Shown here in pieces: positions 3,255 to 54,691 of a stretch of DNA of 64,000 bases. The stretch is from an uncultured Gammaproteobacteria bacterium (GTDB lineage Bacteria > Patescibacteriota > Patescibacteriia > Patescibacteriales > GWC2-42-12), in NCBI GenBank assembly GCA_964467155.1, contig CAYXNZ010000002.1, positions 14,339 to 78,338 of the forward strand. The letters are read 5' to 3'. How positions within the stretch are numbered: position 1 is the first letter of the stretch; each line of letters starts with the position of its first letter. The notes under the pieces are model-generated. The model worked only from the letters and a program-made list of their open reading frames with translations, was not told the origin of the DNA and did not search any database. Made by a program: the position numbers and the translations under genes.

Positions 3255-3950
3255 ATGGGTAAAAAAGTAAATCCAAAAGTCATTCGATTAGGTACTACAA
3301 GGACATGGCCGTCCAAGTGGTTTGGCTTAGGTAAGGAATTTATAAATAACACTAAACAAGACATACAAGTTAGAAAACACATGATTGGAAAAATGCGTGA
3401 AGCAGGTATAGATAGAGTGGAGATTGAGAGAAGTCGAGGAAAAATAAGCGTTAACATTTTTACAGCTAAGCCAGGTTTAATTATCGGACGTGGCGGAACT
3501 GGAGCTGAGGATATTAAAAAAGAATTACACAAAAAATACTTAAAGAATTTTAAAATAGCAGACATTAATTTAAATATTACTGAAGTTGATAGACCAAACT
3601 TAAGTGCTCAGATTATTGTTCAGTCAATGTCTTTGGAACTTGAAAAAAGAGTACCATTTAGACGTGTTATGAAACAAGTTATAGGTAGAGTTGAAAGAGC
3701 TGGCGCACTTGGTATCAAGGTTATTGTTGCCGGTAGACTTAACGGTGCTGAAATTGCTCGATCTGAAATGTTGACATCTGGCAAAGTACCACTACATACT
3801 TTGCGAGCAGACATTGATTATGCTAGAGGTGTTGCTAGAACTACCTATGGTGCAGTTGGAATCAAGGTTTGGATTTATAAAAAAGATATTTTTAAAAAAG
3901 AAGAAGAAGCCGTGAAAGGTGAAATAATCGGCGAGAAAAAAAGTAAATAG
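3255..3950 (+). CDS. rpsC: 30S ribosomal protein S3
   Basis: 231 aa with KH domain and S3 C-terminal motifs ([31 protein letters not shown]). Confidence 0.95.
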
Positions 3951-3958
3951 AAAAAAAT

Positions 3959-4363
3959 ATGTTAATGCCAAAAAAAACAAAGCATAGAAAATCACATAAA
4001 GGCAAAAGAGGTGGTAAAGCTACTCGTTTGACTGAAGTTAATTTTGGTAGTTTTGGATTAAAAGCAGTTGAAGCTCATTGGATAACAGCGAGACAAATAG
4101 AAGCTGCACGACGAGTAATAACCAAATATACTAAAAAAGGTGGTAATATGTGGATTAGGATATTCCCAGACAAGCCAGTTACTCAAAAAGGTGGAGAAAT
4201 ACCTATGGGTAAAGGTAAGGGCGCGGTTGATCATTATGTTGTTGTCGTTAAACCAGGAGCAATAATGTTTGAAGTAGAAGGTATTGATGAAAAAATGGCT
4301 AAGGAAGCTTTGATTTTAGCGGCTCATAAATTACCGATAAAATGTAAATTTGTAAAGAAATAA
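3959..4363 (+). CDS. rplP: 50S ribosomal protein L16
   Basis: 134 aa, [15 protein letters not shown]... and a [11 protein letters not shown]-like L16 core. Confidence 0.95.
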
Positions 4364-4367
4364 TTAT

Positions 4368-4613
4368 ATGGAATTCAAAGAGCTAAAAAAGAAAAAAACA
4401 ATAGATTTGCATAAAATATTAGCTGAATCAAGAGATAAGCTGAGAGAGCTTAAATTTAAAGATGCCAATAAACAGTTGAAGAACGTTCGAGAAATAAGAA
4501 TAATTAGAAAAACAATTTCTCAGATATTAACAATTTTAAATATTTCAGATAAAGAAGAAGCAAATATCAAAGAAGAAAAGAAGGTATCAACAGTAAAAGA
4601 AAATAAAGAATAA
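4368..4613 (+). CDS. rpmC: 50S ribosomal protein L29
   Basis: 81 aa, helical L29-like core (ELRELKFK...NVREIRIIRKTISQILT). Position after L16. Confidence 0.85.
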   Translation: MEFKELKKKKTIDLHKILAESRDKLRELKFKDANKQLKNVREIRIIRKTISQILTILNISDKEEANIKEEKKVSTVKENKE

Positions 4614-4618
4614 ATTAT

Positions 4619-4924
4619 ATGGAAAATAATAAAGCACAAGAAAAAGAAATAAATCAAACGAAACAACAGGTGGATAAAATTAGAAAAAAATTCAATGGTG
4701 TTGTTTTTAGTAATTCTATGGATAAAACAGTTACAGTAATTGTTAGTCGAGTGAAAATGCATCCAAAATATAAAAAAAGATATACAGTTACAAAAAAATA
4801 TAAAGTACATGATGAACAAAATAAATGTAAAAAAGAAGATAAAGTTGTATTTGTTGAATGTCGGCCAATGAGTAAAAGCAAGAGATGGAGAATAGTTTAT
4901 CAAGCTGATAATAATAAAAAATAA
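4619..4924 (+). CDS. rpsQ: 30S ribosomal protein S17
   Basis: 101 aa, GVVFSNSMDKTVTVIVSRVKMHPKYKKRY typical S17 OB-fold sequence. Confidence 0.9.
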   Translation: MENNKAQEKEINQTKQQVDKIRKKFNGVVFSNSMDKTVTVIVSRVKMHPKYKKRYTVTKKYKVHDEQNKCKKEDKVVFVECRPMSKSKRWRIVYQADNNKK

Positions 4925-4931
4925 TTAATAT

Positions 4932-5303
4932 ATGATACAGGTACAGACAAGATTAAAAGTAGCAGACAACGCTGGCGCAAAAAGAGTTATGTGTATTAGA
5001 GTTTTAGGTGGTTACCGCAGAAGATATGCGCGAGTTGGAAATATTATCACAGCTTCAGTGAAAGAAGCCGTGCCTCATTCAGCTATCAAAAAAGGTGATG
5101 TGGTTAGAGCTGTAGTTGTTAGAACAAAAAAAGAAATCGGTAGAGCTGATGGTACTTATTTACGTTTTGATGAAAACGCCTGTGTTATAATTGATAAAGA
5201 AAAGAAAGAAATTAAAGGCACTAGAATCTTTGGTCCAATTGCCAGAGAGGTGAAACAAGCTGGGTATAATAAAATTGCTTCTTTAGCTCCAGAAGTTTTA
5301 TAA
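4932..5303 (+). CDS. rplN: 50S ribosomal protein L14
   Basis: 123 aa, [22 protein letters not shown]... highly conserved L14. Confidence 0.95.
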
Positions 5304-5343
5304 AGATTGAAGCAAAAAGTAAAAACAGTAATATATTATAAAT

Positions 5344-5676
5344 ATGAAAATCAAAAAAGGCGATAAAGTAAAAATACTATCAGGAAAAGATAAAGGCAAA
5401 ACAGGAAAAGTTTTGCAAGTTTTTCCTTCTAGGAATAAAGCTAGTATTGAAGGTTTAAATCTTTTGATTAAGCACATGCGACCAAAAAAGCAGGGAGAAA
5501 AAGGTCAGAGAATTGAATTTCCAGCACCAATGGATTTATCAAATGTCATTCTAGATTGTCCGAAATGTGGTCGACCAACAAGAATTGCTTACAAATATTT
5601 AGATATTACTAAGGGTGATAAAAAAACCAAGAAAAAGACAAGAGTTTGTAAAAAATGTAAACAAATAATTGATTAG
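5344..5676 (+). CDS. rplX: 50S ribosomal protein L24 (KOW) with a C4 zinc-ribbon C-terminus
   Basis: MKIKKGDKVKILSGKDKGKTGKVL KOW motif. The C-terminus carries CPKC...CKKC in place of the usual non-Zn L24 tail. Confidence 0.9.
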   Translation: MKIKKGDKVKILSGKDKGKTGKVLQVFPSRNKASIEGLNLLIKHMRPKKQGEKGQRIEFPAPMDLSNVILDCPKCGRPTRIAYKYLDITKGDKKTKKKTRVCKKCKQIID

Positions 5677-10277: not shown

Positions 10278-10805
10278 ATGTCTTATAAAAGTGAGGGCTT
10301 TAAGGGAATTCAGTATAAAAAAATTGGAAAAGTTGAGGTAGAAGAAATATTAAAAAAAATGGATGTGCATAGCCAACCTAAAGTCAAAGCATTGTTAGGA
10401 ATGTTGTCCGGTCGTTCGAAATCTCTGGCTAAATTTCACAAAGCAGTAAAAGATAAGTGTGGTCAACAAATTGCTAGTCGTTTTGAGACGGTAGCAGAAA
10501 AGCATTTTGGCGGAGGCGTAACCGAAGAACAAAAGAGAAGAAATTTGAAGACGCTTATGCACAAAGACACTTCTTTCTTAGATGAGCAAAGGAGTGGACG
10601 TAAAAAGGTAAATTATAGCGCCTTAGGAAATGTTTCGGCGAGAACAAAGGGGCAAGCATTAGACATTGGAATCAATAGATCAAAAACTGGTTTTGCGTCT
10701 GGCAATTTGAAAAAGTCTGGTTTTGGCGGACAAACAAGCACTAGTAAACCGACGTCACCAGCTAAACCATCGGGAGCACCGCCGATAATTCCATTAGCAA
10801 GATAA
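10278..10805 (+). CDS. Hypothetical protein (175 aa), inserted between secY and adk
   Basis: Clean ORF with no recognisable motifs. The Gly/Ser/Lys-rich C-terminal half looks disordered. Confidence 0.5.
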   Translation: MSYKSEGFKGIQYKKIGKVEVEEILKKMDVHSQPKVKALLGMLSGRSKSLAKFHKAVKDKCGQQIASRFETVAEKHFGGGVTEEQKRRNLKTLMHKDTSFLDEQRSGRKKVNYSALGNVSARTKGQALDIGINRSKTGFASGNLKKSGFGGQTSTSKPTSPAKPSGAPPIIPLAR

Positions 10806-10808
10806 TTT

Positions 10809-11792
10809 ATGACAATAACAATAATATTATTTGTATTAGGCTTTATCCTTTTAATAAAAGGAGCTGATATTTTAATAGATGGCTCTTCTTCTATTGCTAA
10901 AAAGTTTGGTTTATCAGCTTTTTTTATTGGTTTAACTGTTGTGGCTTTTGGTACTTCAGCACCAGAATTAGTTGTCAGTGTAACAGCAAATTTTAGTGGT
11001 AGCTCTGGCATAGCTTTAGGAAATATTATTGGTTCAAATATTGCGAATACTTTATTAATTTTGGGTATTGCGGCGATTATAGCACCTTTAGTAATCAAGC
11101 GTAGAACGGTTCATAAAGAAATTCCCTATTCACTTTTAGCTATCTTGGCTGTTGGTATTTTATCGAATGATTTTTTAATTGATCATATTTCTCCTGACGG
11201 TTTAAATAGAATCGATGGCTTAATGTTACTTTTATTTTTTAGTATTTTTATTTTTTATACATTTGGTATATCAAAGGAAGAAGAAAACATTTTTCAAAAA
11301 ACAGTTGGTGAAATTAAAAATCAGGATCAGGAAGAATATAGTATGCTGTTATCTGTCGGAATGATTTTACTTGGTTTATTAGGTCTCGTACTGGGAGGCA
11401 AATGGATAGTCAACGGAGCGATCCAAATTGCAGAGTATTTTGAATTAAGCCAAGCTTTAATTGGTTTAACTATAGTAGCAATTGGTACGTCTTTGCCGGA
11501 ATTAGCAGCCTCTGGTATGGCCGCTTATCGTGGACGAACAGATATGGCAGTTGGTAACGTAGTTGGATCAAATATTTTTAATTTTCTTTTAGTTTTGGGA
11601 GTAAGTTCCACAATAAGTCCTATTAGATATAATACTACTTTAAATATTGATATTTTAATTTTATTAGTAATTACTATAATGCTTTTACCGTTAGTTTATA
11701 TTGGTAGAAAAAATATCATTGGTAGATGGGAGGGGATAGTATTGGTAAGTTTATTTGTGTGTTATTTTATATTTATATTTTTTAGAGGTTAA
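10809..11792 (+). CDS. Ca2+/cation antiporter (CaCA / YrbG-type sodium-calcium exchanger family)
   Basis: Two internal alpha-repeats (GTSAPELVVSV...GNIIGSNIANTLLILG and GTSLPELAASG...GNVVGSNIFNFLLVLG) typical of CaCA antiporters. Multi-TM. Confidence 0.85.
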   Translation: MTITIILFVLGFILLIKGADILIDGSSSIAKKFGLSAFFIGLTVVAFGTSAPELVVSVTANFSGSSGIALGNIIGSNIANTLLILGIAAIIAPLVIKRRTVHKEIPYSLLAILAVGILSNDFLIDHISPDGLNRIDGLMLLLFFSIFIFYTFGISKEEENIFQKTVGEIKNQDQEEYSMLLSVGMILLGLLGLVLGGKWIVNGAIQIAEYFELSQALIGLTIVAIGTSLPELAASGMAAYRGRTDMAVGNVVGSNIFNFLLVLGVSSTISPIRYNTTLNIDILILLVITIMLLPLVYIGRKNIIGRWEGIVLVSLFVCYFIFIFFRG

Positions 11793-19273: not shown

Positions 19274-19321
19274 TAATAAAATAAAACTCATTTTAGAATG
19301 AGTTATTGGAGGACTAAATAC

Positions 19322-20248
19322 ATGAATCAATCAAATAATAATGCTAAGTTTGCCTTTTTCTACATGCTTTCTTTGGTGGCGTTAATTTTTATGGCGTTAT
19401 CCGCTGGCATGATAGTGTTTCAGATTATTAATAAATTGATTAAAGATATCATTGAACAATATAGCGGTAGTTTTAATTCAGGTTCTTTGAAGTTTGCGAT
19501 TTCGGCACTGATTATATCAACACCAATTTATTATTTCACAGCTAGACAGATTTATAAAAATTTATACACAGGTGCCTTAAGTAAAGATTCGGGTATACGT
19601 AAATGGTTAACATATTTTATTTTATTTGTATCTTCGGTCGTTATGATTGGTTGGTTAATCGGTACAATCAATACCTTTTTGGACGGAGACTTGACTTTGA
19701 AGTTTGCCTTGAAATCTTTAACTGCTGTAGCAATTGCTGGTGCAGTTTTCGGTTTTTATTTTTATGATATTAAGAGAGAAGAAATTGCAGGAAAAAAGGA
19801 TATGATAATCAAAACATTTTTTTGGTCTTCTCTTATAATTATTTTAGCGATATTTATCGGCAGTTTGTTTATCGTTGAATCGCCAAAGGAAACTAGATTG
19901 AGAAAAATTGATGAAGTTGTTTTGAATAGATTTAATAGCATAGACAATGCTATAAATATGTATTTTGCAGACATGGAAAAATTACCAAAAAATTTAGATA
20001 CAATCAGTGATTATAGTAATCATTTAAGTAAAGACGAATTGGCTGATCCCGAGACAGACAAGAAGTTTGATTATAATGTTTTATCAGAAAAAAAATATGA
20101 ATTATGTGGAGATTTCAGAACATCTAATCTTGATCAAGAAGATATTCGAGCGGAATATTTTAAGGAACGTTGGCCACACGACACTGGTTATCAATGTTTA
20201 ATGCAATTAGTGAATGTTAGGGAAGGCTTAGAAAGGCTTGACCGATAG
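19322..20248 (+). CDS. Hypothetical membrane protein (4 predicted TM helices plus a soluble C-terminal domain)
   Basis: ATG at 19322 follows a GGAGG SD. The track start at 19298 is a TTG inside the SD region. Hydrophobic N-terminal half. Confidence 0.5.
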   Translation: MNQSNNNAKFAFFYMLSLVALIFMALSAGMIVFQIINKLIKDIIEQYSGSFNSGSLKFAISALIISTPIYYFTARQIYKNLYTGALSKDSGIRKWLTYFILFVSSVVMIGWLIGTINTFLDGDLTLKFALKSLTAVAIAGAVFGFYFYDIKREEIAGKKDMIIKTFFWSSLIIILAIFIGSLFIVESPKETRLRKIDEVVLNRFNSIDNAINMYFADMEKLPKNLDTISDYSNHLSKDELADPETDKKFDYNVLSEKKYELCGDFRTSNLDQEDIRAEYFKERWPHDTGYQCLMQLVNVREGLERLDR

Positions 20249-20280
20249 AAAAAAAACGTTTAGAATTATTTATTGTCAAT

Positions 20281-20316
20281 AAAGCTCAATGAGGATTTTC
20301 ATCTTGAGCTTTTTAT
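20281..20316 (+). terminator. Rho-independent terminator after the 19322-20248 gene
   Basis: aaagctcaa ... ttgagcttt 9-bp stem followed by TTTTAT. Confidence 0.6.
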
Positions 20317-20378
20317 ATAAACGATCTTTTAAAATAATGAGATTAAAATGAAATTTTATGGGAAGGAGGGGTGAATTC

Positions 20379-20660
20379 ATGAAAAATGTTCTAGGAAGTA
20401 TTACAGGGAATCTGAAAGTTTGGGAAGAAAATATTAGCAAGGAAGAAACACACATTTTAGTAGCAATTAGAATCGGCTGCGAAAACGACAAAAGGATAAA
20501 AAGGATGGCCGAGGAGACCAGAGATGAAAAAATGTTGGCTTTAAGACATCAGAACTACGAGATGACCGGAGAAGAAAGCAAAAAGGAAGAGGGTTTTTCC
20601 GTTACGGAGTACGTTTTTACATGGAGCGAATGGAAAAGAAAAGTTATGAGAAAGGGGTGA
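20379..20660 (+). CDS. Hypothetical protein (94 aa) at the 5' edge of a higher-GC island
   Basis: GGAAGGAGGGG SD 7 nt upstream of ATG 20379. GC content is clearly above the flanks. No motif recognised. Confidence 0.45.
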   Translation: MKNVLGSITGNLKVWEENISKEETHILVAIRIGCENDKRIKRMAEETRDEKMLALRHQNYEMTGEESKKEEGFSVTEYVFTWSEWKRKVMRKG

Positions 20661-20870
20661 AAATTTGGCGAAAAAGCACAAGAGGAACGGGAGGTGTGTA
20701 GGTAGACCGAAGATGTGCGAGAAGACGCCTGGTTAGAAGGCTTGTTTGAAACAATTGAAAAGTAAGCGTCCAGGAATTTGTCGTCAGTGCAACGCTCCAG
20801 AGATTCAAAAAATAAAAGAACGGATTTTTGGGTTATAAAACACAAAAAAACAGAAAGGAAGGAAAAGAAA

Positions 20871-22385
20871 ATGGTACAAAAACCAGTTATATTTCCGTTG
20901 GATGGGTATATGAAAGCGCATCAGGCCTTGTTTGACTTTAGGTCAATACTCAGGGAACCAGGAATGAAGGAATTAATCAGTTTTGCTAAAGGTAACGACC
21001 TTTTTCACTGCGACGATATGCCTGGGCCGGCTGTCATGAAAGCACTTGGTAAAATCGCAATAGAAGAGAATACGGATGTCGGAATTTTTCTTGACCTGAA
21101 ATTGGCTGATGTTAAGAATACGGACATGAACACCGCTAGGCACTACGCTGATTCATTTCCAGGCAAAGGGATTATTACCATCAGTGATAAGGTTAACGGC
21201 GAGGGATTTCTCTATGTTAGGAGGGCATTGCCCAATGTTAAGTTGGCGTTGGTTAGCGTATTGACTGATATGAAATCTGAAGTCTGTGCTCCTCGCTACG
21301 GGAATTATCCTGATACCGAGATTTTACACATGGTGCGATGCATTCAGTCGGAGTATGAAAAAGTGAGGACGGAAAAAGATCCCAAATATGCCTTTGACCT
21401 CATAGTTTGCTCGGCTAACGAAGTTGCTTTTCTTAGACAGGTTTTGGGATTTATTTATGGTTATATTTGTCCGGGCATTAGAGACTCTTGGATGACTGAA
21501 GGACAACAGGCGAGAACGGCTGGAGTAAAATGGGCACTAAACCAGGGTGCTACTTATCTGGTTATGGGTGCACAGATGGCCAAAGGTAATCCTGAAAAAG
21601 GGGTGACAGCTGAACAGAGCCGGCAAATGACCATAGAAGAAGTCAAGAAATCAAATTACATCGAAATCATTCCCAGTGATCCATTGGCTACGCTTACCAA
21701 CTGTGAAGGCTATTATGAAAGTCCAGTTGATAGTGACGGAAAGAGTAAGGGGCCCTTAGTTGCCTATGCTGGAAGTTATGAAGTGGAAGAGGGAAAAGAC
21801 AAAAAAAAGAATCTCGTTGGCTTCGTCTATTTCAATTTTGCCAAAGCCGAACAATACCCTCTACCAAGAGATTACTTTGCACGCCAACTTGCGCAGGTTA
21901 TCGTTGAACAGGTGGGTATACCAGATGTCGTGATCGGAGCACCTATGGGTGGCATTATGATGGCGGTGGAAGTTGGTCGCATTCTTGGCTGTCGGACTAT
22001 CTTCGCCGAAAAAAAGGTTATTGCTTTGGCCGATATCAAGACAGGCGAAAAAGAGCAATCCGAGCTGATTATTAATCGACATGATATTAATCCTGGAGAC
22101 TTTGTGGTTATTATCGAAGATGTCATTAATAATCTGTCGACTCCAAAAAAGATGATCGGCATCATCAATGAGAGAGATGGCAATCTTCTCGGTATTGCAG
22201 CCCCGTTCAGCAGGTCACAAAAGACTGAATGGAATGAATTGCCAGTTGCAGCAGGCACGCACAAGCCTCTGAAGCAGTTCAAACAGGAAGATCCAGTTGT
22301 TGCCGACTTAATCACGGCCGGCTACATCGTCTGGTCGCCAAAACAGCAATGGGCACAACTCAAGGAGGCGATGGAAGAAGGGTAG
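20871..22385 (+). CDS. Bifunctional OMP decarboxylase (PyrF-like N-terminal domain) / type I phosphoribosyltransferase (PyrE/OPRTase-like C-terminal domain). A UMP-synthase-like fusion in reversed domain order.
   Basis: N-domain: VIFPLDGY (Asp), IFLDLKLADVKNT (compare OMPDC FLDLKLHDIPTT), ICPGIR (compare TPGIR). C-domain: PRPP loop FVVIIEDVINNLST and a PyrE-like core. Start taken at ATG 20871 after an AAGGAAGG SD. The track start at 20778 adds a K-rich, non-protein-like extension. Confidence 0.75.
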   Translation: MVQKPVIFPLDGYMKAHQALFDFRSILREPGMKELISFAKGNDLFHCDDMPGPAVMKALGKIAIEENTDVGIFLDLKLADVKNTDMNTARHYADSFPGKGIITISDKVNGEGFLYVRRALPNVKLALVSVLTDMKSEVCAPRYGNYPDTEILHMVRCIQSEYEKVRTEKDPKYAFDLIVCSANEVAFLRQVLGFIYGYICPGIRDSWMTEGQQARTAGVKWALNQGATYLVMGAQMAKGNPEKGVTAEQSRQMTIEEVKKSNYIEIIPSDPLATLTNCEGYYESPVDSDGKSKGPLVAYAGSYEVEEGKDKKKNLVGFVYFNFAKAEQYPLPRDYFARQLAQVIVEQVGIPDVVIGAPMGGIMMAVEVGRILGCRTIFAEKKVIALADIKTGEKEQSELIINRHDINPGDFVVIIEDVINNLSTPKKMIGIINERDGNLLGIAAPFSRSQKTEWNELPVAAGTHKPLKQFKQEDPVVADLITAGYIVWSPKQQWAQLKEAMEEG

Positions 22386-22421
22386 AGTTCGCTTCTACCA
22401 AAATAAAATAAATAAGGTTCA

Positions 22422-22461
22422 ACCCGGTCCGTTCACTCTATGTGGACGGGCCGTTTTTTTG
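22422..22461 (+). terminator. Rho-independent terminator closing the PyrF-PyrE island
   Basis: cccggtcc ... ggacgggcc stem with a one-nt bulge, then a T7 run. Confidence 0.65.
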
Positions 22462-29423: not shown

Positions 29424-29496
<73 letters not shown>

Positions 29497-29525
29497 CAGG
29501 GAACGTAAATTAACAAGATTTAAAA

Positions 29526-29610
29526 GGGTCGGTACCAAAGCGGTCAAATGGGGCAGACTGTAAATCTGCTGGCTACGCCTTCGTTGGTTCGAATCCAGCC
29601 CGGCCCACCA
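29526..29610 (+). tRNA. tRNA-Tyr (anticodon GTA), class II with long variable arm and encoded CCA
   Basis: Acceptor GGGTCGG/CCGGCCC, anticodon stem GCAGA/TCTGC with loop CT-GTA-AA, 13-nt variable arm, T-arm GTTGG-TTCGAAT-CCAGC, 3' ACCA. 85 nt. Confidence 0.8.
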
Positions 29611-29645
29611 AATCAATTAAGAATTAAAAATTAAGAAAAAAGAAT

Positions 29646-29801
29646 ATGTCGCAAGAAAACATGATAAAGTTGGAGTGTACTGAATGTAAGAGAATAAATT
29701 ATTTTTCAAGAAAAAATAAAAAGACTCTTAAAGATAGATTAGAATTAAAAAAATATTGTAAGCATTGTAAGAAGCACACTCTTCATAAAGAAACAAAATA
29801 A
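29646..29801 (+). CDS. rpmG: 50S ribosomal protein L33 (zinc-ribbon type, 51 aa); not in the ORF track because it is under 60 aa
   Basis: [51 protein letters not shown]. Canonical L33 with CxxC...CxxC. Typical position between tRNA-Thr/Tyr and tRNA-Trp. Confidence 0.85.
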
Positions 29802-29814
29802 TACCTCACCCCAG

Positions 29815-29838
29815 CCCCTCTCCTAATTAGGAGAGGGG
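29815..29838 (+). terminator. Perfect 9-bp GC-rich hairpin (cccctctcc-taatta-ggagagggg) after rpmG; likely terminator or processing site
   Basis: Perfect palindrome read directly. No clean T-run follows, so terminator function is uncertain. Confidence 0.4.
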
Positions 29839-29865
29839 AATAAAAAGGGAGAGGTTTAATTTCAG

Positions 29866-29936
29866 GCGGGATTCGTATAATGGTAGTACAGGGGTCTCCA
29901 AAACCTCTAGCGGGGGTTCGATTCCCTCATCCCGTG
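29866..29936 (+). tRNA. tRNA-Trp (anticodon CCA)
   Basis: Acceptor GCGGGAT/ATCCCGT (G-U first pair), D-arm GTAT-AATGGTA-GTAC, anticodon stem GGGGT/ACCTC with loop CT-CCA-AA, T-arm GGGGG-TTCGATT-CCCTC. CCA not encoded. Confidence 0.8.
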
Positions 29937-29943
29937 CAAATAA

Positions 29944-30222: not shown

Positions 30223-30771
30223 ATGAGTAAAATTACCGTAGAACAGATCGGCGAGCTGGTTGAGCAAAGCAAGGGTGAGAATCCTCGGGTAACCAGGGAG
30301 ATCCTGCAGGCTTTCCTGCGAAACCCCAACGCCTTTCTGCGGGCAAGCGTTTATTCAGCTACCGTTGATTACGGGAAAAGCGTTGAGGAAATGGTTGTCG
30401 CCGGCAACTACGACTGGAAAAACAAAGACATCAATTCCAAAAACTTTCCCGTATCAGGTGAGGGAACGGTCAACGTCAATTTCGAGTTGATCCACCTCAA
30501 CAAGGGAGTTAGCTCCGAGGATGCTTTGACCCACCTCGAAGAAAACGGGATGAGGCCACCGACAATTGAGGAATTACTGGTGTTCGGCTCCAGTTACCCC
30601 GAAATCCAGCGGGAATTTCCGGTTATTTGCCTCGGCTCGTCTTGGGTTAATCCCGGCGGCGACCGTTACGTGCCTTACCTCAACGGGAATGGTTCGGAGC
30701 GTGGCCTCGACCTCGGCTGGTTCGACGATGACTGGAATGGGTACTGTCGTTTTCTGGCCGTTCGCAAGTAG
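30223..30771 (+). CDS. DGR target (variable) protein; the C-terminal ~46 aa are encoded by the variable repeat
   Basis: AAAGGAGCGG SD. GC-rich coding sequence. The 3' 139 bp is near-identical to the TR, with mismatches only at TR adenines. C-terminus ...SSWVNPGGDRYVPYLNGNGSERGLDLGWFDDDWNGYCRFLAVRK resembles CLec-fold DGR variable regions. Confidence 0.85.
   Translation: MSKITVEQIGELVEQSKGENPRVTREILQAFLRNPNAFLRASVYSATVDYGKSVEEMVVAGNYDWKNKDINSKNFPVSGEGTVNVNFELIHLNKGVSSEDALTHLEENGMRPPTIEELLVFGSSYPEIQREFPVICLGSSWVNPGGDRYVPYLNGNGSERGLDLGWFDDDWNGYCRFLAVRK
30631..30769 (+). repeat. DGR variable repeat (VR)
   Basis: 139-bp alignment with the TR (31142-31280). 14 mismatches, all at TR adenines (A to G 11, A to T 2, A to C 1). 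Identity ends exactly at ...gttcgcaagt. Confidence 0.9.
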
Positions 30772-30786
30772 GATCTTGTCGCCTTG

Positions 30787-30818
30787 TGTCCTTGGAACTG
30801 GAACTTTGTCCCTTGGAC
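30787..30818 (+). promoter_or_regulatory. Hairpin 18 nt downstream of the VR (gtgtcc...ggacac); candidate DGR homing-enhancing stem-loop
   Basis: Inverted repeat gtgtcc / ggacac. Its position just 3' of the VR matches the cruciform element described for the Bordetella phage DGR. Confidence 0.4.
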
Positions 30819-31141
30819 ACTTGGCAACTTGTAACCTCACAACAAAAACCCCGCACGTTTTATGCTTAGAAAAGCAGACGACGAGCGGGGTTATTTATTT
30901 TGTGATATAATAAATTTGGAAAGTAAACGAATCAGCTCACGGCTACGGTTGCGGGCGGTTGAAATCTGGATACTGCAACAAGTGAGATTATCCAAGGTTA
31001 CGGCTTTGGGTAGAGTGCCGTTGCAATATTCCATAAAATAAAAATACTTGGTATAAGATATCAGTGGGATAATAGCCCCGAATAAAATACAGCCCCGAGA
31101 GTATTCAAAGGGCGGTGGCAAAGACGATATCTTATTATTTT

Positions 31142-31280
31142 AACGGCTCGTCTTGGGTTAATCCCGACGGCAACCGTAACGTGCCTTACCTCAACAGGAA
31201 TGGTTCGAAGCGTAACCTCAACCTCAACTGGTTCGACAATGACTGGAATGAGTACTGTCGTTTTCTGGCCGTTCGCAAGT
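31142..31280 (+). repeat. DGR template repeat (TR)
   Basis: Invariant, A-rich copy of the VR located between the target gene and the RT. Followed by the ctccc-atac-ggggag hairpin plus a T-run. Confidence 0.9.
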
Positions 31281-31284
31281 CTTT

Positions 31285-31605
31285 TCATTCTCTCCCATAC
31301 GGGGGAGTTTCTTTTTTATAAAGCTTCATCCAACCGCCTATCATTCTGCCGATCTCGGCAAGTGGGGCGGATATGGCTGTCAATTTGTTTGTATCAATCG
31401 CTTTTATTTCCCAAAGAAGCTTCAAGAAGAATTTGAGCATATCAAATCTTGCGTTAAGTTCTTTTATCGTGTCGGCCTTTTTGTCTTTCGGCTGATAGCT
31501 TGCCCGCAGAGCAATTGCCAGACAATCGGTAAATAGATTATCTATCTTTTTACCCAAAGTGAAGCGGGTAATTTTCGGCAGATGAATTAAAAAAGAATGC
31601 CACAT
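31285..31605 (-). CDS. avd: DGR accessory variability determinant (Avd-like four-helix-bundle protein), inverted relative to target/TR/RT
   Basis: LNARFDMLKFFLKLLWEIKAI and LAEIGRMIGGWMK align with bAvd (LAMLRFWLRFLAGI, IAEVGRILGSWI). The frame stays open upstream through a C10 tract with no canonical start, so the N-terminus is uncertain. Confidence 0.65.
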   Translation of the reverse strand: MWHSFLIHLPKITRFTLGKKIDNLFTDCLAIALRASYQPKDKKADTIKELNARFDMLKFFLKLLWEIKAIDTNKLTAISAPLAEIGRMIGGWMKLYKKETPPYGRE

Positions 31606-31655
31606 CTGATATGCCTCACTTAATTTGGCGATAATCGGAATATCGCAATTGCTGA

Positions 31656-31665
31656 GGGGGGGGGG
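31656..31665. repeat. G10/C10 homopolymeric tract between avd (minus) and the RT start
   Basis: gggggggggg read directly at the divergent avd/RT junction. It lies inside open frames on both strands. Confidence 0.9.
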
Positions 31666-31687
31666 TAGACTTATAAGCTTTTTGTGT

Positions 31688-32692
31688 ATGAAGATTAAAT
31701 TGATTCATAGTTATAATGATATTATTTGCGTTAATAATTTGTTTTCGGCTTGGAATGAATTTATTGTCGGTAAAAAATCTAAAAAAGATGTGCAGGAATA
31801 TTCCCGCAATCTTCTTGATAACATTATATCACTTCACGAAGATTTGGCTAATAAATCTTATCGGCACGGTGGGTATCACAGTTTTTACATCAATGACCCA
31901 AAACGCAGGCACATTCATAAAGCGAGCGTGCAAGACAGATTGCTTCATCACGCCGTTTACCGCCTGCTGTATCCGTTTTTTGAGAAAACGTTTATCCACG
32001 ATTCATATTCTTGCCGTTTGGAAAAAGGCGTGTATAAAGCGATTGAACGATTTGATGCCTATGCTGGCAAGACAAGCAAAAACGATACCAAGACGGCATG
32101 GATATTAAAGTGCGACATTAAAAAATTTTTCAATAGTATTGTCCATAAAACCTTACTGGAAATTTTAAACAAACACATTCCTGACAAAGATATAATATGG
32201 CTTTTGAATAACGTCATAGACAGTTATCATAATACAAACAAGAGAGGCGTCGGCTTGCCACTCGGTAATTTGACTTCCCAGCTGTTTGCTAATGTATATA
32301 TGAATGTTTTTGATCAGTGGGTTAAGCACAGATTAAAGATTAAGCGGTATATAAGATACGCAGATGATTTTGTATTTTTCAGCAGAGATAAGCGACAGCT
32401 CCATTCTTTGATTGAGCCAGTTGGAGAATTTTTGTTTCAAACATTAGGTTTAACACTTCATCCCAAAAAGATTATCAAAAAGTCATTGTCGTCCGGCATG
32501 GATTTTTTGGGTTGGGTGCATTTGACTCACTATAAAAAATTACGGAACAAGACAAAAGAGCGGATGTTTAGAAAAATAGCCGACGATCCTAGAGATGAAG
32601 TTTTCCAGTCATATCTGGGGCTTTTAAGCCACGGCAATACTTACAAAATTGAAAAAGAATTGCGTAACCTTTATTGGCTTTTAGGAGATTAA
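31688..32692 (+). CDS. DGR reverse transcriptase
   Basis: RT motifs in order. The DGR-specific motif-4 variant LPLGNLTSQLFAN (LGxxxSQ) and YADDFVFF are present. Start at ATG 31688 (MKIKLIHSYNDIICVNNLF...). The track start at 31625 would read through the G10 tract. Confidence 0.85.
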   Translation: MKIKLIHSYNDIICVNNLFSAWNEFIVGKKSKKDVQEYSRNLLDNIISLHEDLANKSYRHGGYHSFYINDPKRRHIHKASVQDRLLHHAVYRLLYPFFEKTFIHDSYSCRLEKGVYKAIERFDAYAGKTSKNDTKTAWILKCDIKKFFNSIVHKTLLEILNKHIPDKDIIWLLNNVIDSYHNTNKRGVGLPLGNLTSQLFANVYMNVFDQWVKHRLKIKRYIRYADDFVFFSRDKRQLHSLIEPVGEFLFQTLGLTLHPKKIIKKSLSSGMDFLGWVHLTHYKKLRNKTKERMFRKIADDPRDEVFQSYLGLLSHGNTYKIEKELRNLYWLLGD

Positions 32693-49412: not shown

Positions 49413-52400
49413 ATGTTTACAAGAAGGAGGCTTGTTTTTTTATTGTGTTTTTCTTTTTTATTTTTTGCGGTTTGTGTTTTGTCTTATGACAATTTGATTA
49501 CTCATCCGAAGCTAACAGAATCAGCAATTAATATTTACGAGCAGGAAGCTGGTAAATATTTAAATTATCAACAAACAAATTGGATTATTAAAGGTTCAAT
49601 TGATGAAGACAATGATCCGCGGTATTTAAACCATTTTTATAACCCACAAACTGGGCGAGGGCTAAACGATGGTTGGTTTCATGGTCAATCAGCTAAAAAT
49701 TGGGCATTTTCTCAAGATAGTGCTACTGGCGATTATTCAGTTGGCGCTATTTTTAATAATTATAGAAACGGTGATTTAATGCGTGCTTATCAGGGTATTG
49801 GCCATATTTTACATTTAATTCAGGATATGAGCGTGCCGGCACATGTTAGAAATGATGCTCATCCAAGCGGCGACCCGTTTGAAGAATGGGCAGAACATTA
49901 TGGGACAATAAACGCTGACAAAATACAAAAAATAAATATCAATAGTATAGAAAATGTTTTTGATGATTTAGCTTTTTTTACTAGTAATAATTTTTTTAGT
50001 AAAGATACAATTGTAATTGAAGAATTGGATAAATATAAAATAGATGAGGAACTAATTGACAACAGAAAAAGGTTTTATTTGATTAATAAAATAGATAAAC
50101 AAGAATATAAATTAGTATATTCAAAAAATCCAGATTCCATAATGCCAGTTTTTCAAATTGATGATGATTTTAAATTAAATCTTGACTATTGGAATATGCT
50201 TTATCCAAAAGCAGTTGGGTATAGCGCGGGCGTGATTGAATATTTTATTAAAGAATTTAAAAAGATAGATCAAGAGAAAAATGAAACAACAATAAGTTTA
50301 TGGCAAAAGATAAAAAATAGCACAAACAATCTTTCTTCAGATTTAGCTTATACGTGGGGCGATACTTTTATTGATAGTAGGATTAGATTAGATAATATTT
50401 TAGCAAGTGCGTTTAGTGGATATACTAAAAGTCAACAAGGATTTGAATTTTTTGCTGAAGCTAATAGAGAAATTTTAACTGATTTAAGTCAAAGGAGTGT
50501 AAATATTGCTCAAAATTTGTCTGGCAAGGTATTATCGGCAGAGGATACCATTTCAAAACAACAGATTCAGACAAAAATAGAAACAGAAGTGATTCAAGAT
50601 TTGAAAAAAAATAATCCAGATGTGGCCAGAGTGATTGATGGCGATACAATTGAATTAACTACTGGTGAAAAAGTTCGTTATATTGGCATTGATACACCAG
50701 AATTAAACAGCGAAGGATCAGATGACGATGAATGTTTAGCTTGGCTAGCCAGATTAAGAAATATGGAGCTTTTAAGCATGGGCGAGTTAAAATTAGTAGA
50801 AGATTCAACTGCCAAGACAGATAAATACGGCAGATTATTGCGTTATGTTTATATAAACAATTTGTTCGTTAATGACGTATTAGTTAAAGAAGGATTAGCT
50901 GAAATATTTTTTTGCCAACCAGGCTGGGAAAATTGTCCAGTAACAACAGATAAAAATAAAGAGAATATAATCAAAGCTTCAAACCAAGAAGCTAAAAATA
51001 ATGCTAGAGGAATTTATTCTGGCGTTTGCGATAAGGAAGATGAGCCTGAAAAAGAAATTATTAAAAAATTTGAAGATAAAATTGAAGAAAAAATAATCTT
51101 GGAAGAAAAATTTATAGAAAATAATACAGCTAGCACGTCAACGTCAACAATGATGCAATTACCTCTTGTTTGCGCGCCAGCTCATAATAATGATTCAGAT
51201 AACACAAATGTTGTTGTTTCAGAGATAGCGAATTTTTCTGTTTTTGATATAACTTCAAGTAGTACTAATATTATTGCCAGTACTACCGTTGGATTAAGTT
51301 ATACAATTAGCAATCAGGAAGCAGTCGAAGGATATTTTTTGTCAGAAGCTTCTACAACACCCGCAATTGACGATGCTAGTTGGGAAACTACTGCGCCAAG
51401 TCAATTTGTTTTATCAAGTAGCGATGGTAAAAAAATAATTTATTTTTGGTTAAAATATAATAGTGATAATATAACAAATTTTGTCAGTTCAACAATTATT
51501 CTAGATACAACAGCGCCGACAATGCCAATGATTACTAGCATAGAACCGTTAAGTGATATTTATTGGGTAAATACTAGTGAAGTTTTGTTAAGCGGAGAAA
51601 AAGAAATTGGAGTTGATGCGATTTTGATAAATGGTGTAGCATATAGTGCGACCAGCAGTGAAGAAACATGGAATGTTAATTATACTTTTGATTTTATTTG
51701 TTCTGACTCAAGCTCCTGGGGTAATTTAGTTGCTTATGATTGTATGACTGAATATTGCAATGGACATAAAGAAGAATGCGATGGTTTGAGTGATGAAGAG
51801 ATGAGAGTATTTTTTTATGAAAGAGAATTGATTTTAAAAGCGAAAAATGAAGCAGGTAATTATTCAGAAGAAGCTGAAAAAGTTTTTAGATTGGATAATT
51901 TTTTGCCAAAAATTTGGGGAGCATTATCAACTAAATCAATTCCCAGTAGTTTTGTGTATTTTTATATGTCAAATTTAGAAGATTTTATGTCGGATTTATT
52001 GTTTTTTAATTCCGGTGTGAGCGGGTATGAGTTTGAATATAAATTTAATGATTCAGAAGATTGGGTTGTTGGAGAAATTGTCGAGGTTAATTATCCTAAC
52101 GCGACTCTTCGGGCAGTATTGTCAGATGAAGGTAATTTTGATTTACGTTTTAGAATGCTTGATTTTGCTGGTAATGTTGGCGAGTGGTACGAAGGTTTGA
52201 CGGCGGAAGTTAATTTTTATCCGGTAATTAGCGAAATTTATATGGATGAAATTAATAGTGGCAGTGAATGGATAGAGCTTTATAATCCATCGGTCAGTGA
52301 TATTGATATCGGTGGCTGGGTAATTGATACCAAAGCAGACGAAGAGGCCGACGTTACTTTGCCAGATGACGCGATAATTCCGGCTTATGGATTTTATTTT

Positions 52401-52787
52401 ATCGGCGATCAAGTATCAGGAGAATGGAATCCCGATAATGTTGACTGGATAGTTCCAGACTACACCGAGACTATGACATTGACAAATGACGATGGCTGGG
52501 TTAGGTTGAGAAAAAGTACTGGTGGTGAAATTGTTGATACAGTTGGTTGGCAGAAAACAAAAGTTAAAGCAGAAGTTTATGAAGGCAGAGAAGTTAATAC
52601 TTTTGGTTGTAAAGAAGGTTATAGTATTGAAAGGTTAAATATGTTACAAGTACTTTCTGATAACACAGATCTTTATCAAAATAAAGGGAATAATTTTGAT
52701 AGGAATTATAATAGCGGGGATTTTGTTGTTAGAGAAACACCCAATCCACAAAATAGTTCGTCAGCAGTTGAAGGGGCGGGGGATTAA
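49413..52787 (+). CDS. Large secreted multidomain nuclease: N-terminal zinc-dependent phospholipase C / S1-P1 nuclease-like domain, central staphylococcal-nuclease (SNase) domain, C-terminal lamin-tail domain
   Basis: Signal/TM at the N-terminus. HFYNPQTGRGL and GIGHILHLIQDMSVPAHVRND (compare B. cereus PLC HFYDPDNGKTY, LGLSLHYLGDVNQPMH). SNase motifs VIDGDTIELTTGEKVRYIGIDTPE...KYGRLLRYVYI...LVKEGLAE. LTD motif VISEIYMDEINSGSEWIELYNPS...IGGWVI. Confidence 0.7.
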   Translation: MFTRRRLVFLLCFSFLFFAVCVLSYDNLITHPKLTESAINIYEQEAGKYLNYQQTNWIIKGSIDEDNDPRYLNHFYNPQTGRGLNDGWFHGQSAKNWAFSQDSATGDYSVGAIFNNYRNGDLMRAYQGIGHILHLIQDMSVPAHVRNDAHPSGDPFEEWAEHYGTINADKIQKININSIENVFDDLAFFTSNNFFSKDTIVIEELDKYKIDEELIDNRKRFYLINKIDKQEYKLVYSKNPDSIMPVFQIDDDFKLNLDYWNMLYPKAVGYSAGVIEYFIKEFKKIDQEKNETTISLWQKIKNSTNNLSSDLAYTWGDTFIDSRIRLDNILASAFSGYTKSQQGFEFFAEANREILTDLSQRSVNIAQNLSGKVLSAEDTISKQQIQTKIETEVIQDLKKNNPDVARVIDGDTIELTTGEKVRYIGIDTPELNSEGSDDDECLAWLARLRNMELLSMGELKLVEDSTAKTDKYGRLLRYVYINNLFVNDVLVKEGLAEIFFCQPGWENCPVTTDKNKENIIKASNQEAKNNARGIYSGVCDKEDEPEKEIIKKFEDKIEEKIILEEKFIENNTASTSTSTMMQLPLVCAPAHNNDSDNTNVVVSEIANFSVFDITSSSTNIIASTTVGLSYTISNQEAVEGYFLSEASTTPAIDDASWETTAPSQFVLSSSDGKKIIYFWLKYNSDNITNFVSSTIILDTTAPTMPMITSIEPLSDIYWVNTSEVLLSGEKEIGVDAILINGVAYSATSSEETWNVNYTFDFICSDSSSWGNLVAYDCMTEYCNGHKEECDGLSDEEMRVFFYERELILKAKNEAGNYSEEAEKVFRLDNFLPKIWGALSTKSIPSSFVYFYMSNLEDFMSDLLFFNSGVSGYEFEYKFNDSEDWVVGEIVEVNYPNATLRAVLSDEGNFDLRFRMLDFAGNVGEWYEGLTAEVNFYPVISEIYMDEINSGSEWIELYNPSVSDIDIGGWVIDTKADEEADVTLPDDAIIPAYGFYFIGDQVSGEWNPDNVDWIVPDYTETMTLTNDDGWVRLRKSTGGEIVDTVGWQKTKVKAEVYEGREVNTFGCKEGYSIERLNMLQVLSDNTDLYQNKGNNFDRNYNSGDFVVRETPNPQNSSSAVEGAGD

Positions 52788-52860
52788 ATTTATATTTGAA
52801 AATAGGTTTATATAATTTTAACGTTCTTTACATTTTTTTCAAAAAAGGAGGAAATGATAC

Positions 52861-53181
52861 GTGGAAGATAAAGATTCAGAGGAAATCACTCCGTTCCTCA
52901 AGCTTTATAATATTGTAGGTGGATTTGCTGTTACGGATGAACAGCGGCAACAAGCTTGGCAACAACTTTTGCTTATAGGGGATATCCATCTATTTTCTAT
53001 TCTTATTGCGGCAAAGTTTTCCTGGATAAAAATATCTGACGAGGACAAGGAGAAGGCATGGCAAGAATTGTTAAAAAGAGGTATTCAAGATGATGACTTA
53101 TATTTGAATTACCTCTCAGTAAATGCGCCAGAGCCATGGTGCAAAAGAGCTAGGGAATTAAAAGATAAATTGCAGGAATAA
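52861..53181 (+). CDS. Hypothetical small protein (106 aa), first of five SD-driven small genes
   Basis: AAAGGAGG SD 7 nt upstream of GTG 52861. No motif recognised. Confidence 0.45.
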   Translation: MEDKDSEEITPFLKLYNIVGGFAVTDEQRQQAWQQLLLIGDIHLFSILIAAKFSWIKISDEDKEKAWQELLKRGIQDDDLYLNYLSVNAPEPWCKRARELKDKLQE

Positions 53182-53207
53182 TGATTTTTTCAAAAAGGAG
53201 GATCGTT

Positions 53208-53471
53208 ATGGCGACAAAGGGATTGATATCAGAATATGTTAGAAGGAAGAAGGCTTTGATAAAAACTTTAGGTAAAATTGCCATAATCGTTACTTCGGAT
53301 AGAAAAGACGCTGAGGCGATAAAAATTTTACATTCATCGCTTCGTGGCGATAGAGACGTTTCTCTTATTGTTCTTGATGCGATAAGTTTGAACAATAAAA
53401 TGTCCGAAGATGACAAAAAATCTTTTCGTGAAATAGCATCTTACCTGGGGTTGCCGATAAAGGATTGGTAG
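53208..53471 (+). CDS. Hypothetical small protein (87 aa)
   Basis: AAAAGGAGG SD, then ATG 53208 (MATKGLISEY...). The track start at 53181 lies upstream of the SD. Confidence 0.45.
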   Translation: MATKGLISEYVRRKKALIKTLGKIAIIVTSDRKDAEAIKILHSSLRGDRDVSLIVLDAISLNNKMSEDDKKSFREIASYLGLPIKDW

Positions 53472-53491
53472 TTTCAAAGAAGCTCTATACT

Positions 53492-53523
53492 CGCCCGACC
53501 GAACATGGCCGGGCGTTTTTTAT
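53492..53523 (+). terminator. Rho-independent terminator
   Basis: cgcccg-accgaacatgg-ccgggcg followed by TTTTTTT. Confidence 0.65.
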
Positions 53524-53631
53524 ATAAAATACGGTTATATTTAACATTTTAAGCATTAGCGATAGATCCCGCGATTAGAGCCAAAAGGCGGGATTAGAGG
53601 AGGGTGTTATTCATATAAAATAAGCTAACCA

Positions 53632-53660
53632 TTGACAAAATATCATAAATAGGTTATGGT
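53632..53660 (+). promoter_or_regulatory. Promoter TTGACA-17-TATGGT sharing the TTGACAAAATAT box seen at 46656 and 46710
   Basis: ttgaca aaatatcataaataggt tatggt, about 75 nt upstream of the 53737 gene. Confidence 0.45.
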
Positions 53661-53736
53661 TATATGAAGTAAAAAATTTTTGTTGTTTTAAAAATAAGCC
53701 ATTCGGCTTAATACAAAATAAGGGGAGGAAAAGACA

Positions 53737-53988
53737 ATGGCAAAAAATCCAAATAGAAAACTTTCACTTTGTGATTTGAAGTATACTGAAGTAGTTAATT
53801 TATTAAAGAAACCACCGTTGTCTTTGAGTCCCAATAAACTTGGTGACGTAGTTATCGAGGCTTGTGTAAGGATCAGACAAGGAAATGATCCTGGCGAAGA
53901 CTTATTTAACGAAGTTGTCATTCTTGCAACTACAGATGACAGTAGCCAGGCCTCGGAATTGTCTAAACAGTTTTTGGAAGATTTGTAG
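53737..53988 (+). CDS. Hypothetical small protein (83 aa)
   Basis: AAGGGGAGG SD. ORF only. Confidence 0.45.
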   Translation: MAKNPNRKLSLCDLKYTEVVNLLKKPPLSLSPNKLGDVVIEACVRIRQGNDPGEDLFNEVVILATTDDSSQASELSKQFLEDL

Positions 53989-54016
53989 TAAAAAAGACAC
54001 AAAGGAGGTGTTTATC

Positions 54017-54298
54017 ATGGTAAAAGCAATACTTATTGATGTGAAAACGGAAGATCTGATTATGTTAATTTTTGATGGAGATAACGCAGACAAAGAGCAT
54101 GATGAAGGAGCGGCGACAGTTGAGCTTGTTGCCCGTTTTCTCCAGGAAAAAACATCCGAGAAAGACAAGGAGGGGATAAAAAAATGTCTTTCGGTGTTAA
54201 CAAAGGCGGACGGGGAAGTAGGGGTTCTTGCCAGAGATGCTTGCAGAACTTTTGGTATTTCTTTCGGTGGTCCTCTACCGCCAATTATGCATCTATAG
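54017..54298 (+). CDS. Small protein (93 aa), paralog A with conserved C-terminus ...GEVGVLARDACRTFGISFGGPLPPIMHL
   Basis: AAAGGAGG SD 7 nt upstream of ATG 54017. The C-terminal 30 aa are nearly identical in pattern to the next gene. Confidence 0.55.
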   Translation: MVKAILIDVKTEDLIMLIFDGDNADKEHDEGAATVELVARFLQEKTSEKDKEGIKKCLSVLTKADGEVGVLARDACRTFGISFGGPLPPIMHL

Positions 54299-54391
54299 AA
54301 GCGTTCCTCAGAAGCGTTCCTCCTCTCGGTTCATTTCAACGAGCTGAGGGGAGGCGCTCTTTTAAAAAATGTCATGAAGGAGGTAATCTCT

Positions 54392-54691
54392 ATGCTAAAA
54401 AAAGCTAAAAATTATTACAAATTGTCAGTTAAAGAGTTAGCTGGCTTACTCCTTAGTCCTTACAGGAGTAATGGTGAGGAATATGATAAAGGAGCGTTAG
54501 TTATTGAACTTGGTCGTCGTATGTTACTTGGTGGTAGATCCAAGATAACAGACGATAACCGAAAGTTGATAAAAAACTGTCTTAAGAAGTTAACACAAAC
54601 AAAAGGCGAGGTAGGAGTCCTTGCCAAAGATTGGTGTAGGGAGCTGAACATACCATTCGGTGGCCCCTTACCGCCGATTATGCATTTATGA
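54392..54691 (+). CDS. Small protein (99 aa), paralog B with conserved C-terminus ...GEVGVLAKDWCRELNIPFGGPLPPIMHL
   Basis: GAAGGAGG SD then ATG 54392. Shares IKKCL/IKNCL...GEVGVLA+D.CR...I.FGGPLPPIMHL with the 54017 gene. Confidence 0.55.
   Translation: MLKKAKNYYKLSVKELAGLLLSPYRSNGEEYDKGALVIELGRRMLLGGRSKITDDNRKLIKNCLKKLTQTKGEVGVLAKDWCRELNIPFGGPLPPIMHL

Follow-up and report, generated by a model that had tools for sequence, protein, structure and literature searches.

A probable bifunctional UMP synthase of a Patescibacteria-specific lineage, with PyrF-like and PyrE-like domains fused and an altered phosphate-binding signature

Bacteria in the candidate phyla radiation (CPR, also called Patescibacteria) are commonly portrayed as incapable of nucleotide synthesis. 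A gene at positions 20871-22385 (+) of a 64-kb stretch of contig CAYXNZ010000002.1 (the window, by which we mean all 64,000 nucleotides analyzed) raises the question of whether such a bacterium might take orotate through the final two reactions to UMP with a single fused protein, and whether, as a preliminary description of this DNA had suggested, the gene arrived by horizontal transfer. We consider it likely that the 504-aa product is a bifunctional UMP synthase belonging to a lineage specific to Patescibacteria. According to this proposal, the C-terminal domain, a type I phosphoribosyltransferase (PRTase) resembling a divergent PyrE of the Thermus/Helicobacter kind, would convert orotate and phosphoribosyl pyrophosphate (PRPP) to orotidine monophosphate (OMP), and the N-terminal TIM-barrel domain, a divergent PyrF of the bacterial type, would decarboxylate OMP to give the predicted product, UMP; both activities are predictions. 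The gene itself would be an old chromosomal resident between a DUF5671 gene and ybaK-scpA-scpB, and would form its own transcription unit between two terminators, behind a purine-rich leader of about 550 nt that contains a poorly conserved small open reading frame (ORF).

The mechanical ORF list placed the reading frame at 20778..22385 (+), with 535 codons from a TTG. All homologues begin at an internal ATG at 20871 (MxQKP[VI]I...), which is preceded by AAAGGAAGGAAAAG, and because every homologue starts there we took this ATG as the start and 504 aa as the length of the product. The preliminary description had likewise proposed a 504-aa protein with the decarboxylase domain first and the PRTase domain second, in a CPR genome. 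Our analysis agrees with it on each of these points: the motifs that it quoted (FLDLKLADVKNT, ICPGIR and VVIIEDVINNLST) were all found in the protein, and the host is Falkowbacteria-like.

The OMP decarboxylase (OMPDC)-like domain occupies residues 1-262 (20871..21656, +). It was recognized by Pfam (OMPdecase at residues 65-238, E = 6e-6) and NCBIfam (pyrF, PRK00230, E = 8e-17), by alignment to E. coli PyrF (1eix) and by structural comparison with Foldseek. The catalytic D75-x-K77-x-x-D80 motif, encoded at 21093-21110, aligns with D71-x-K73-x-x-D76 of the E. coli enzyme, and an alignment of 27 family members (37-78% identity) shows no variation at D11, K40, D75, K77 or D80 or within the PGIR loop (residues 201-204). 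The DxKxxD motif is also present in other enzymes of the OMPDC suprafamily, and it is therefore necessary but not sufficient for assignment as an OMPDC. The domain shares more than this motif with the bacterial PyrF proteins of E. coli and B. subtilis (1dbt), namely the TIM barrel (template-modelling [TM] scores of 0.81-0.85 against 1dbt, 1eix and 8cso), the Asp and Lys upstream of the motif, and the PGIR loop together with the Q..R after it. It differs from them in that identity is only 20-22%, the GRP of the bacterial enzymes is replaced by GAQxxKGN and LTS by LTD, and an additional D205-x-W207-M208, invariant in the family, follows the loop (PGIRDxWM).

The second domain, an orotate phosphoribosyltransferase (OPRT)-like type I PRTase, covers residues 263-504 and, with the stop codon, 21657..22385 (+). 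Its assignment comes from matches to Pfam Pribosyltran (residues 338-453, E = 1.3e-5) and NCBIfam pyrE_Therm (TIGR01367, E = 8e-14) and to the Helicobacter pylori OPRT HP1257 (4paw). The PRPP loop, E416-D417-V-I-N420-N421-L-S-T, is encoded at 22116-22142 and preceded by a VVII strand, and the flexible loop of the domain lies around residues 383-398. In the same 27-sequence alignment, E416, D417, N420, N421 and R448 are invariant. Thermus-type PyrE and the H. pylori enzyme are the closest known relatives, giving the best profile match and the best match in the Protein Data Bank (PDB) by both sequence and fold, and they have in common with our protein a hood segment of the form 'Y.Q/N.AK....P' and a strand of the form 'F(A/T)E(R/K)'; unlike them, the fusion protein has a PRPP loop of the NN type instead of T-T-G-G-T/S and an insertion at about residues 301-311. 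In Foldseek, 4paw was matched at a TM score of 0.72-0.76, followed by other OPRTs and adenine phosphoribosyltransferases, and an OPRT-like hood is present. The catalytic-residue check that had been suggested in the preliminary description thus gave a positive answer as far as the OMPDC set and the PRTase residues E416, D417 and R448 are concerned, all of which are invariant.

An AlphaFold2 model of the whole protein, built from the 27 family members, was of high predicted quality (pLDDT 91, pTM 0.89). The best PDB match of the full model was the UMP synthase of Leishmania donovani (3qw4, E = 1e-15), which contains both domains in the same OMPDC-then-OPRT order. The two proteins also differ: identity is only 14%, the domains are placed differently relative to each other (TM 0.36-0.41, rmsd 14.6 Å), and the active-site signature is not the same. 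The OMPDC-OPRT order has been documented in kinetoplastids (Trypanosoma brucei Tb927.5.3810), in stramenopiles (oomycetes and diatoms) and in some cyanobacteria (PMC2705460, PMC3868941). The reversed domain order, to which the preliminary description had drawn attention, is thus no novelty. The novelty lies in an uncharacterised lineage of both enzymes that extends across the Patescibacteria, has a re-tooled phosphate-binding signature, occurs fused or split, and is sometimes found alongside PyrC and a PyrD-like protein.

Several observations weigh against assigning the orotate-to-UMP reaction to this protein. All four profile matches fall below the curated cut-offs, narrowly in Pfam (OMPdecase, 26.7 bits against 27; Pribosyltran, 25 bits against 26.3) and widely in NCBIfam (PRK00230, 61 against 193; TIGR01367, 51.7 bits against 150). 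The PRPP loop lacks the usual TTGG, the family consensus being ED[VL]xNNFST (VCNNFSTT) where DDVxTTGGT is expected. In the decarboxylase domain, the conserved LT is followed by Asp and not by the canonical Ser, and the canonical C-terminal 'GR', which carries the Arg that grips the phosphodianion, is replaced by G233-A234-Q235...K238. In the alignment to E. coli PyrF, A234 takes the place of the Arg in 'vIGRpv', a position at which the fused proteins have A (19), S (3) or G (1). The R235A substitution in yeast OMPDC raised Km 800-fold and lowered kcat 15-fold, at a cost of 5.6 kcal/mol (PMC12874384). If A234 is the counterpart of yeast R235, as the alignment leads us to infer, this cost would also count against the assignment. 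Finally, the 64-kb window contains no other pyr gene, as neither pyrB (searched for by its STRTR/HPxQ signature) nor pyrC nor a pyrD-like gene was found there, and a literature search for a CPR PyrF-PyrE fusion or for use of orotate by Patescibacteria returned nothing relevant.

One alternative suggested by these departures is that the protein is a paralogous two-step enzyme, which would join PRPP (or a 5'-variant analogue) to some other carboxylated heterocycle and then decarboxylate the product. The preliminary description had raised another phosphoribosyl substrate with regard to the PRPP loop, and the change of that loop to NNFST would fit such a switch, as would the Ala or Ser at the gripper-Arg position, the change of LTS to LTD together with the invariant PGIRDxWM, and the scores below the equivalog cut-offs. 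On the other side, the xanthine phosphoribosyltransferase of B. subtilis, a bona fide PRTase, likewise has an Asn in its PRPP loop (IIDDFLANGQA), and the phosphate could still be held by R204 of the PGIR loop together with the invariant K238. Further evidence on the choice of substrate comes from the relatives of the fusion protein.

In a word-indexed search, 117 clusters (defined at 90% identity) were obtained, nearly all of them proteins of about 500 aa, 37-50% identical to ours and from metagenome-assembled genomes (MAGs) of Patescibacteria, and two of them at 77-78% identity. Automated annotation labels such proteins 'OMP decarboxylase/HUMPS family' or 'orotate phosphoribosyltransferase/OMP decarboxylase'. 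In a scan of GTDB, relatives were present in 132 species genomes, with a patchy distribution across the CPR. An exhaustive profile search widened the family to 342 clusters (50% identity, E <= 1e-30), of which about 14 were full-length fusions and the others stand-alone PRTase or OMPDC-like proteins. At the 80 loci compared (individual loci are given below by number, such as L001), we found 26 fusions and 27 adjacent same-strand pairs with the decarboxylase gene followed by the PRTase gene; 5 pairs were otherwise arranged, and 22 were singletons, many of them at contig ends. Because split forms are common in the CPR family, the fusion probably arose independently of that represented by 3qw4. 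We also noted a copy at L045 (JAHIRU010000079.1, labelled Nanoarchaeota archaeon; 3940-5409) in which the module is in the PRTase-then-decarboxylase order; this DPANN-labelled copy could be the result of mis-binning or of sharing between domains of life.

The PRPP loop of the NN type (EDVxNNFST) proved to be the norm in this family, and the partners of the NN-loop PRTase are not always of the same kind. The stand-alone OMPDC genes were of three kinds. The first cluster comprises 28 genes, nearly all beside an NN-loop PRTase gene; about 15 of them encode canonical bacterial enzymes with LTS, PGIRP and GRP, and about 10 encode the family type with LTD, PGIRDxWM and GAQ. The second cluster comprises 14 genes of a third kind, with PG[IV]G, which we take to resemble the archaeal/yeast type. 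The reverse exchange of partners was also seen. At L060 a family-type decarboxylase gene is followed by a textbook pyrE (YDRKETKDHGEGG, VLVIDDVITAGTA), and the same order was seen at L068, where the canonical pyrE (SVRKEKKGHGVGG, IAIVEDVITTGDS) behind a family-type decarboxylase gene has a single frameshift (10774-11500). These interchangeable parts, an NN-loop PRTase encoded beside a canonical PyrF that keeps GRP and LTS, and a family-type OMPDC paired with a canonical PyrE, constitute the strongest argument that the family converts orotate to UMP.

The genes found near the module point in the same direction as regards the substrate. A divergent PyrD-like gene (PRK07259, 77 bits) lies a few genes from the module at 10 loci whose neighborhoods are otherwise unrelated. 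At L012 and L061, a gene for the dihydroorotase PyrC stands between the module and the PyrD-like gene (TIGR00856, 276 bits; cut-off 293), and a PyrC search over the flanks of all loci found it at these two only. The premise of the preliminary description that CPR usually lack the pathway was not supported, since some CPR loci have the module adjoining both PyrC and PyrD-like genes. With the NN loop as the family norm, the swapping of partners and the PyrC and PyrD-like neighbors, a switch of substrate is unlikely, and we regard the paralogous two-step enzyme as highly improbable. We therefore retain the assignment of the fusion protein as a probable UMP synthase.

How such a module would be used in the cell is a separate question. 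One hypothesis, which we put forward tentatively and hold to be possible but not probable, is that the PyrF-PyrE module is the sole remnant of pyrimidine synthesis in this and many other CPR genomes, where it would salvage orotate to UMP, and that it is a cassette that has been repeatedly exchanged or rebuilt. If so, the orotate would be derived from a host or from the environment, and dihydroorotate or carbamoyl-aspartate could be the starting compound where the PyrD-like gene and PyrC are present. The exchange, if real, would account for the GC excess at third codon positions described below, the three types of PyrF, the swaps of PyrE and the differing versions at one locus. On this hypothesis, the re-tooled phosphate residues (GR to GAQ..K and TTGG to NNFS) might reflect a co-adapted, possibly channelling, arrangement of the two domains. 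Other genes of nucleotide metabolism were also seen near the module. A purB-like gene (adenylosuccinate lyase, TIGR00928, 287 bits) lies a few genes away at L016, L027, L032, L034, L053 and L070, and a gene similar to that for hypoxanthine/xanthine PRTase (HGPRT-like) lies near it at L038, L039, L050 and L058. The recurrence of these genes at several loci that are otherwise unrelated hints at small nucleotide-metabolism neighborhoods in CPR. Neighbors other than the pyr, purB-like and HGPRT-like genes reflect lineage-specific synteny.

The sequence composition of the gene bears on its origin. The preliminary description had noted a compositional anomaly, and the anomaly is real: the GC content of the fusion gene is 0.445 as compared with 0.329 in the remaining window (a difference of +0.116), a value reached by just 1% of 1.5-kb windows in the flanks, and the GC content at third codon positions (GC3) is 0.436, about 2.2 standard deviations above the window-gene mean of 0.252 (sd 0.083). 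One explanation is that the gene is a horizontally acquired orotate-to-UMP island from a GC-richer donor that has not yet been ameliorated. Codon bias linked to expression was considered as the cause of the high GC3 and rejected, because GC3 is lowest in the genes for ribosomal proteins of the window; values for gyrB, gap, tpi and fba are 0.18-0.25, and those for ribosomal-protein and housekeeping genes overall are 0.12-0.25. This failure of expression or conservation alone to explain the bias favors an origin by transfer, and so do the patchy distribution across CPR and the presence of a mobile retroelement among the other GC3-rich genes of the window.

Against a transfer of recent date stands the locus in a Falkowbacteria MAG (GCA_043817035.1, L001), which has a 78%-identical orthologue in the same syntenic position. 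The neighbors are the same on both sides, with an aminoacyl-tRNA synthetase gene, a small ORF and the DUF5671 gene upstream, and ybaK, scpA, scpB, a peptidase gene, tpi and fba downstream. The orthologue is also GC-rich (0.50 versus 0.36). Because this copy has both the same position and the same GC excess, the idea of a recently inserted island was not upheld. Any acquisition would have to predate the divergence of the flanks, since the L001 orthologue is syntenic and the flanking orthologues of the window and L001 are 47-73% identical at the protein level. Every one of these values is below the 78% of the module, which indicates strong purifying selection on the fusion protein. Moreover, the fusion gene is bordered by the DUF5671 gene and ybaK, with no integrase, transposase or tRNA gene at its borders; the nearest tRNA genes are at 29.4-29.9 kb of the window.

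The GC and GC3 excess is, in addition, a trait of the whole family. Among 94 module genes at 66 loci, the median GC3 z-score relative to the neighboring genes was +1.4, and 39% of the genes exceeded +2 sd. The mean GC excess of the module was +0.04 to +0.075, and the GC content of the module followed that of the host with a slope of 0.75 (r = 0.69). This near-constant offset from the host fits a bias intrinsic to the genes better than it fits recent imports. We therefore think that an unameliorated island from a GC-richer donor is an unlikely explanation for the gene in the window.

One observation points, however, to a history other than simple vertical descent. The flanking genes place L001, L029, L030 and L031 together in a clade (75-91% identity), to which the window is the outgroup. 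Against this grouping, the fused version of the module is common to L001 and the window, whereas L029-31 have a split version at the same locus, made up of a canonical-like PyrF and a PRTase that is only 51% identical; the L001 module is thus 78% identical to that of the window and 51% identical to that of its closer relatives, a discrepancy that counts in favor of transfer. At the syntenic loci L035 and L068 a third version of the module is found at the same site. These observations point to an old locus whose occupants have been replaced or rebuilt, with a non-vertical history at the scale of the family. Recurrent exchange among CPR is a reasonable candidate explanation for part of the GC signal. 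Some relatives show signs of decay of the module: the decarboxylase at L031 (2086-4948) lacks D11, K77 and D80, and its gene is set apart from that of the PRTase by an ORF of 382 aa; at L035 (10780-11322) the canonical pyrE has been lost altogether; and the frameshift at L068 was mentioned above.

The preliminary description had placed the gene between two terminators, and both hairpins were confirmed, the upstream one by folding and the downstream one by its stem and run of seven T residues. The upstream hairpin and U-run (20283..20316, +; hairpin 20283-20311) is the probable terminator of the DUF5671-family membrane-protein gene at 19298-20248. Its folding energy is -11.8 kcal/mol (z = -2.3 relative to shuffled sequences), and L001, L086 and L087 each have an equivalent hairpin at this place; a pattern-based terminator scanner did not flag it. 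The intrinsic terminator of the fusion gene (22425..22461, +) consists of a 12-bp stem with 8 GC pairs (22425-22453) and a 5-nt loop, followed by TTTTTTT.

About 550 nt separate the upstream hairpin from the gene, and the region from 20249 to 20875 is 66% purine as compared with 55% in the window. Within it, a strong Shine-Dalgarno (SD) sequence (AAGGAGG) is followed by the small ORF (20363..20660, +, including the SD). The ORF encodes 93 aa from the ATG at 20379, which is the likely start, or 100 aa from the ATG at 20358. The small ORF mentioned in the preliminary description does exist (20358-20660), and its SD is strong, the site being perfect and one of about nine places in the 64 kb where AGGAGG precedes a start codon (here at 20363). 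The product has no Pfam or NCBIfam match, and database matches numbered four: one identical, one of 81% identity and two 57-aa versions. The small ORF is conserved in very close relatives only. In L087, which has a 57-aa version, the frame is cut by TAG stops while the surrounding DNA is still about 94% identical, and in L001 an SD and ATG are at the same position but the encoded peptide is unrelated and highly basic. The small ORF is thus lineage-restricted and of doubtful coding status, perhaps a translated leader, and we do not regard it as a conserved partner of the enzyme. In a comparison of the region 20500-20720 with L086, the DNA is near-identical in the 3' half of the small ORF and for roughly another 90 nt, up to the end of the L086 contig, and the 5' half of the ORF is visibly more diverged, a mosaic that suggests recombination or a constraint at the nucleotide level.

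The spacer that links the small ORF to the fusion gene (20661..20870, +) is also purine-rich and has at its 3' end the SD AAAGGAAGGA. A riboswitch or other structured leader was considered and rejected, because folding of 20655-20875 gave a z-score of 0.04, that is, no excess structure. Rfam detected three tRNAs only in the whole window at the gathering threshold, and noise only over 20200-20950 at E <= 5. Alignment of the window with L001 revealed nothing in common in the leader beyond the terminator hairpin and the SD with its ATG. Attenuation of the pyrBI kind at the hairpin 20597-20609 and its T-run found no support, as the stem is just 5 bp long and the pair of substitutions seen in L087 do not compensate each other. 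The third frame of 20665-20838 encodes a basic, Cys-rich peptide that contains GRCVGRPKMCEKTPG and, immediately after an in-frame TAG, KACLKQLKSKRPGICRQCN. In a blastx search of the leader against the ORFs of all loci, one marginal match was obtained (E = 0.012 in a small database), to a Cys-rich ORF of 103 aa that immediately precedes the module in L030; we do not rely on this match. The third frame may be left over from a small zinc-ribbon-like gene.

If the proposed function is correct, a sizeable minority of CPR retains no fewer than the final two steps of UMP synthesis, and in some the number is four. Surveys of pathways in CPR may under-count pyrE and pyrF, because both domains score just under curated thresholds. 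Orotate or its precursors would then be a concrete metabolite that episymbionts may need from their partners, which could be of use in the design of cultivation media and in metabolic models. The family would also offer a natural experiment for the enzymology of OMP decarboxylase, in which the gripper-Arg position is naturally Ala or Ser.

Other features of the window deserve mention. The second GC-rich peak is a complete diversity-generating retroelement (DGR, 30223-32692), located just downstream of the genes for tRNA-Thr, tRNA-Tyr and tRNA-Trp (29424-29937). It consists of a target ORF (30223-30771; GC 0.53, GC3 0.64) that belongs to no family, a variable repeat (30633-30769), a template repeat (31144-31280), an Avd gene (31285-31605, -; NF033474, 70.6 bits) and a reverse transcriptase gene (31625-32692, +). 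All 12 mismatches between the two repeats (12/12) are at adenines of the template.

The interval 52845-54691 contains four small ORFs of 96-137 aa with perfect AAGGAGG SD sequences and a GC3 of 0.35-0.40, for which no significant Pfam match was found. Five of the roughly nine strong SD-plus-start sites in the window fall within this interval, and it may be another compositionally foreign patch. The interval 49413-52787 encodes a protein of 1124 aa that has a staphylococcal-nuclease domain and a lamin-tail domain, which would fit a secreted or surface nuclease that scavenges nucleic acids. The window also encodes UDP-sugar enzymes, which are consumers of UTP.

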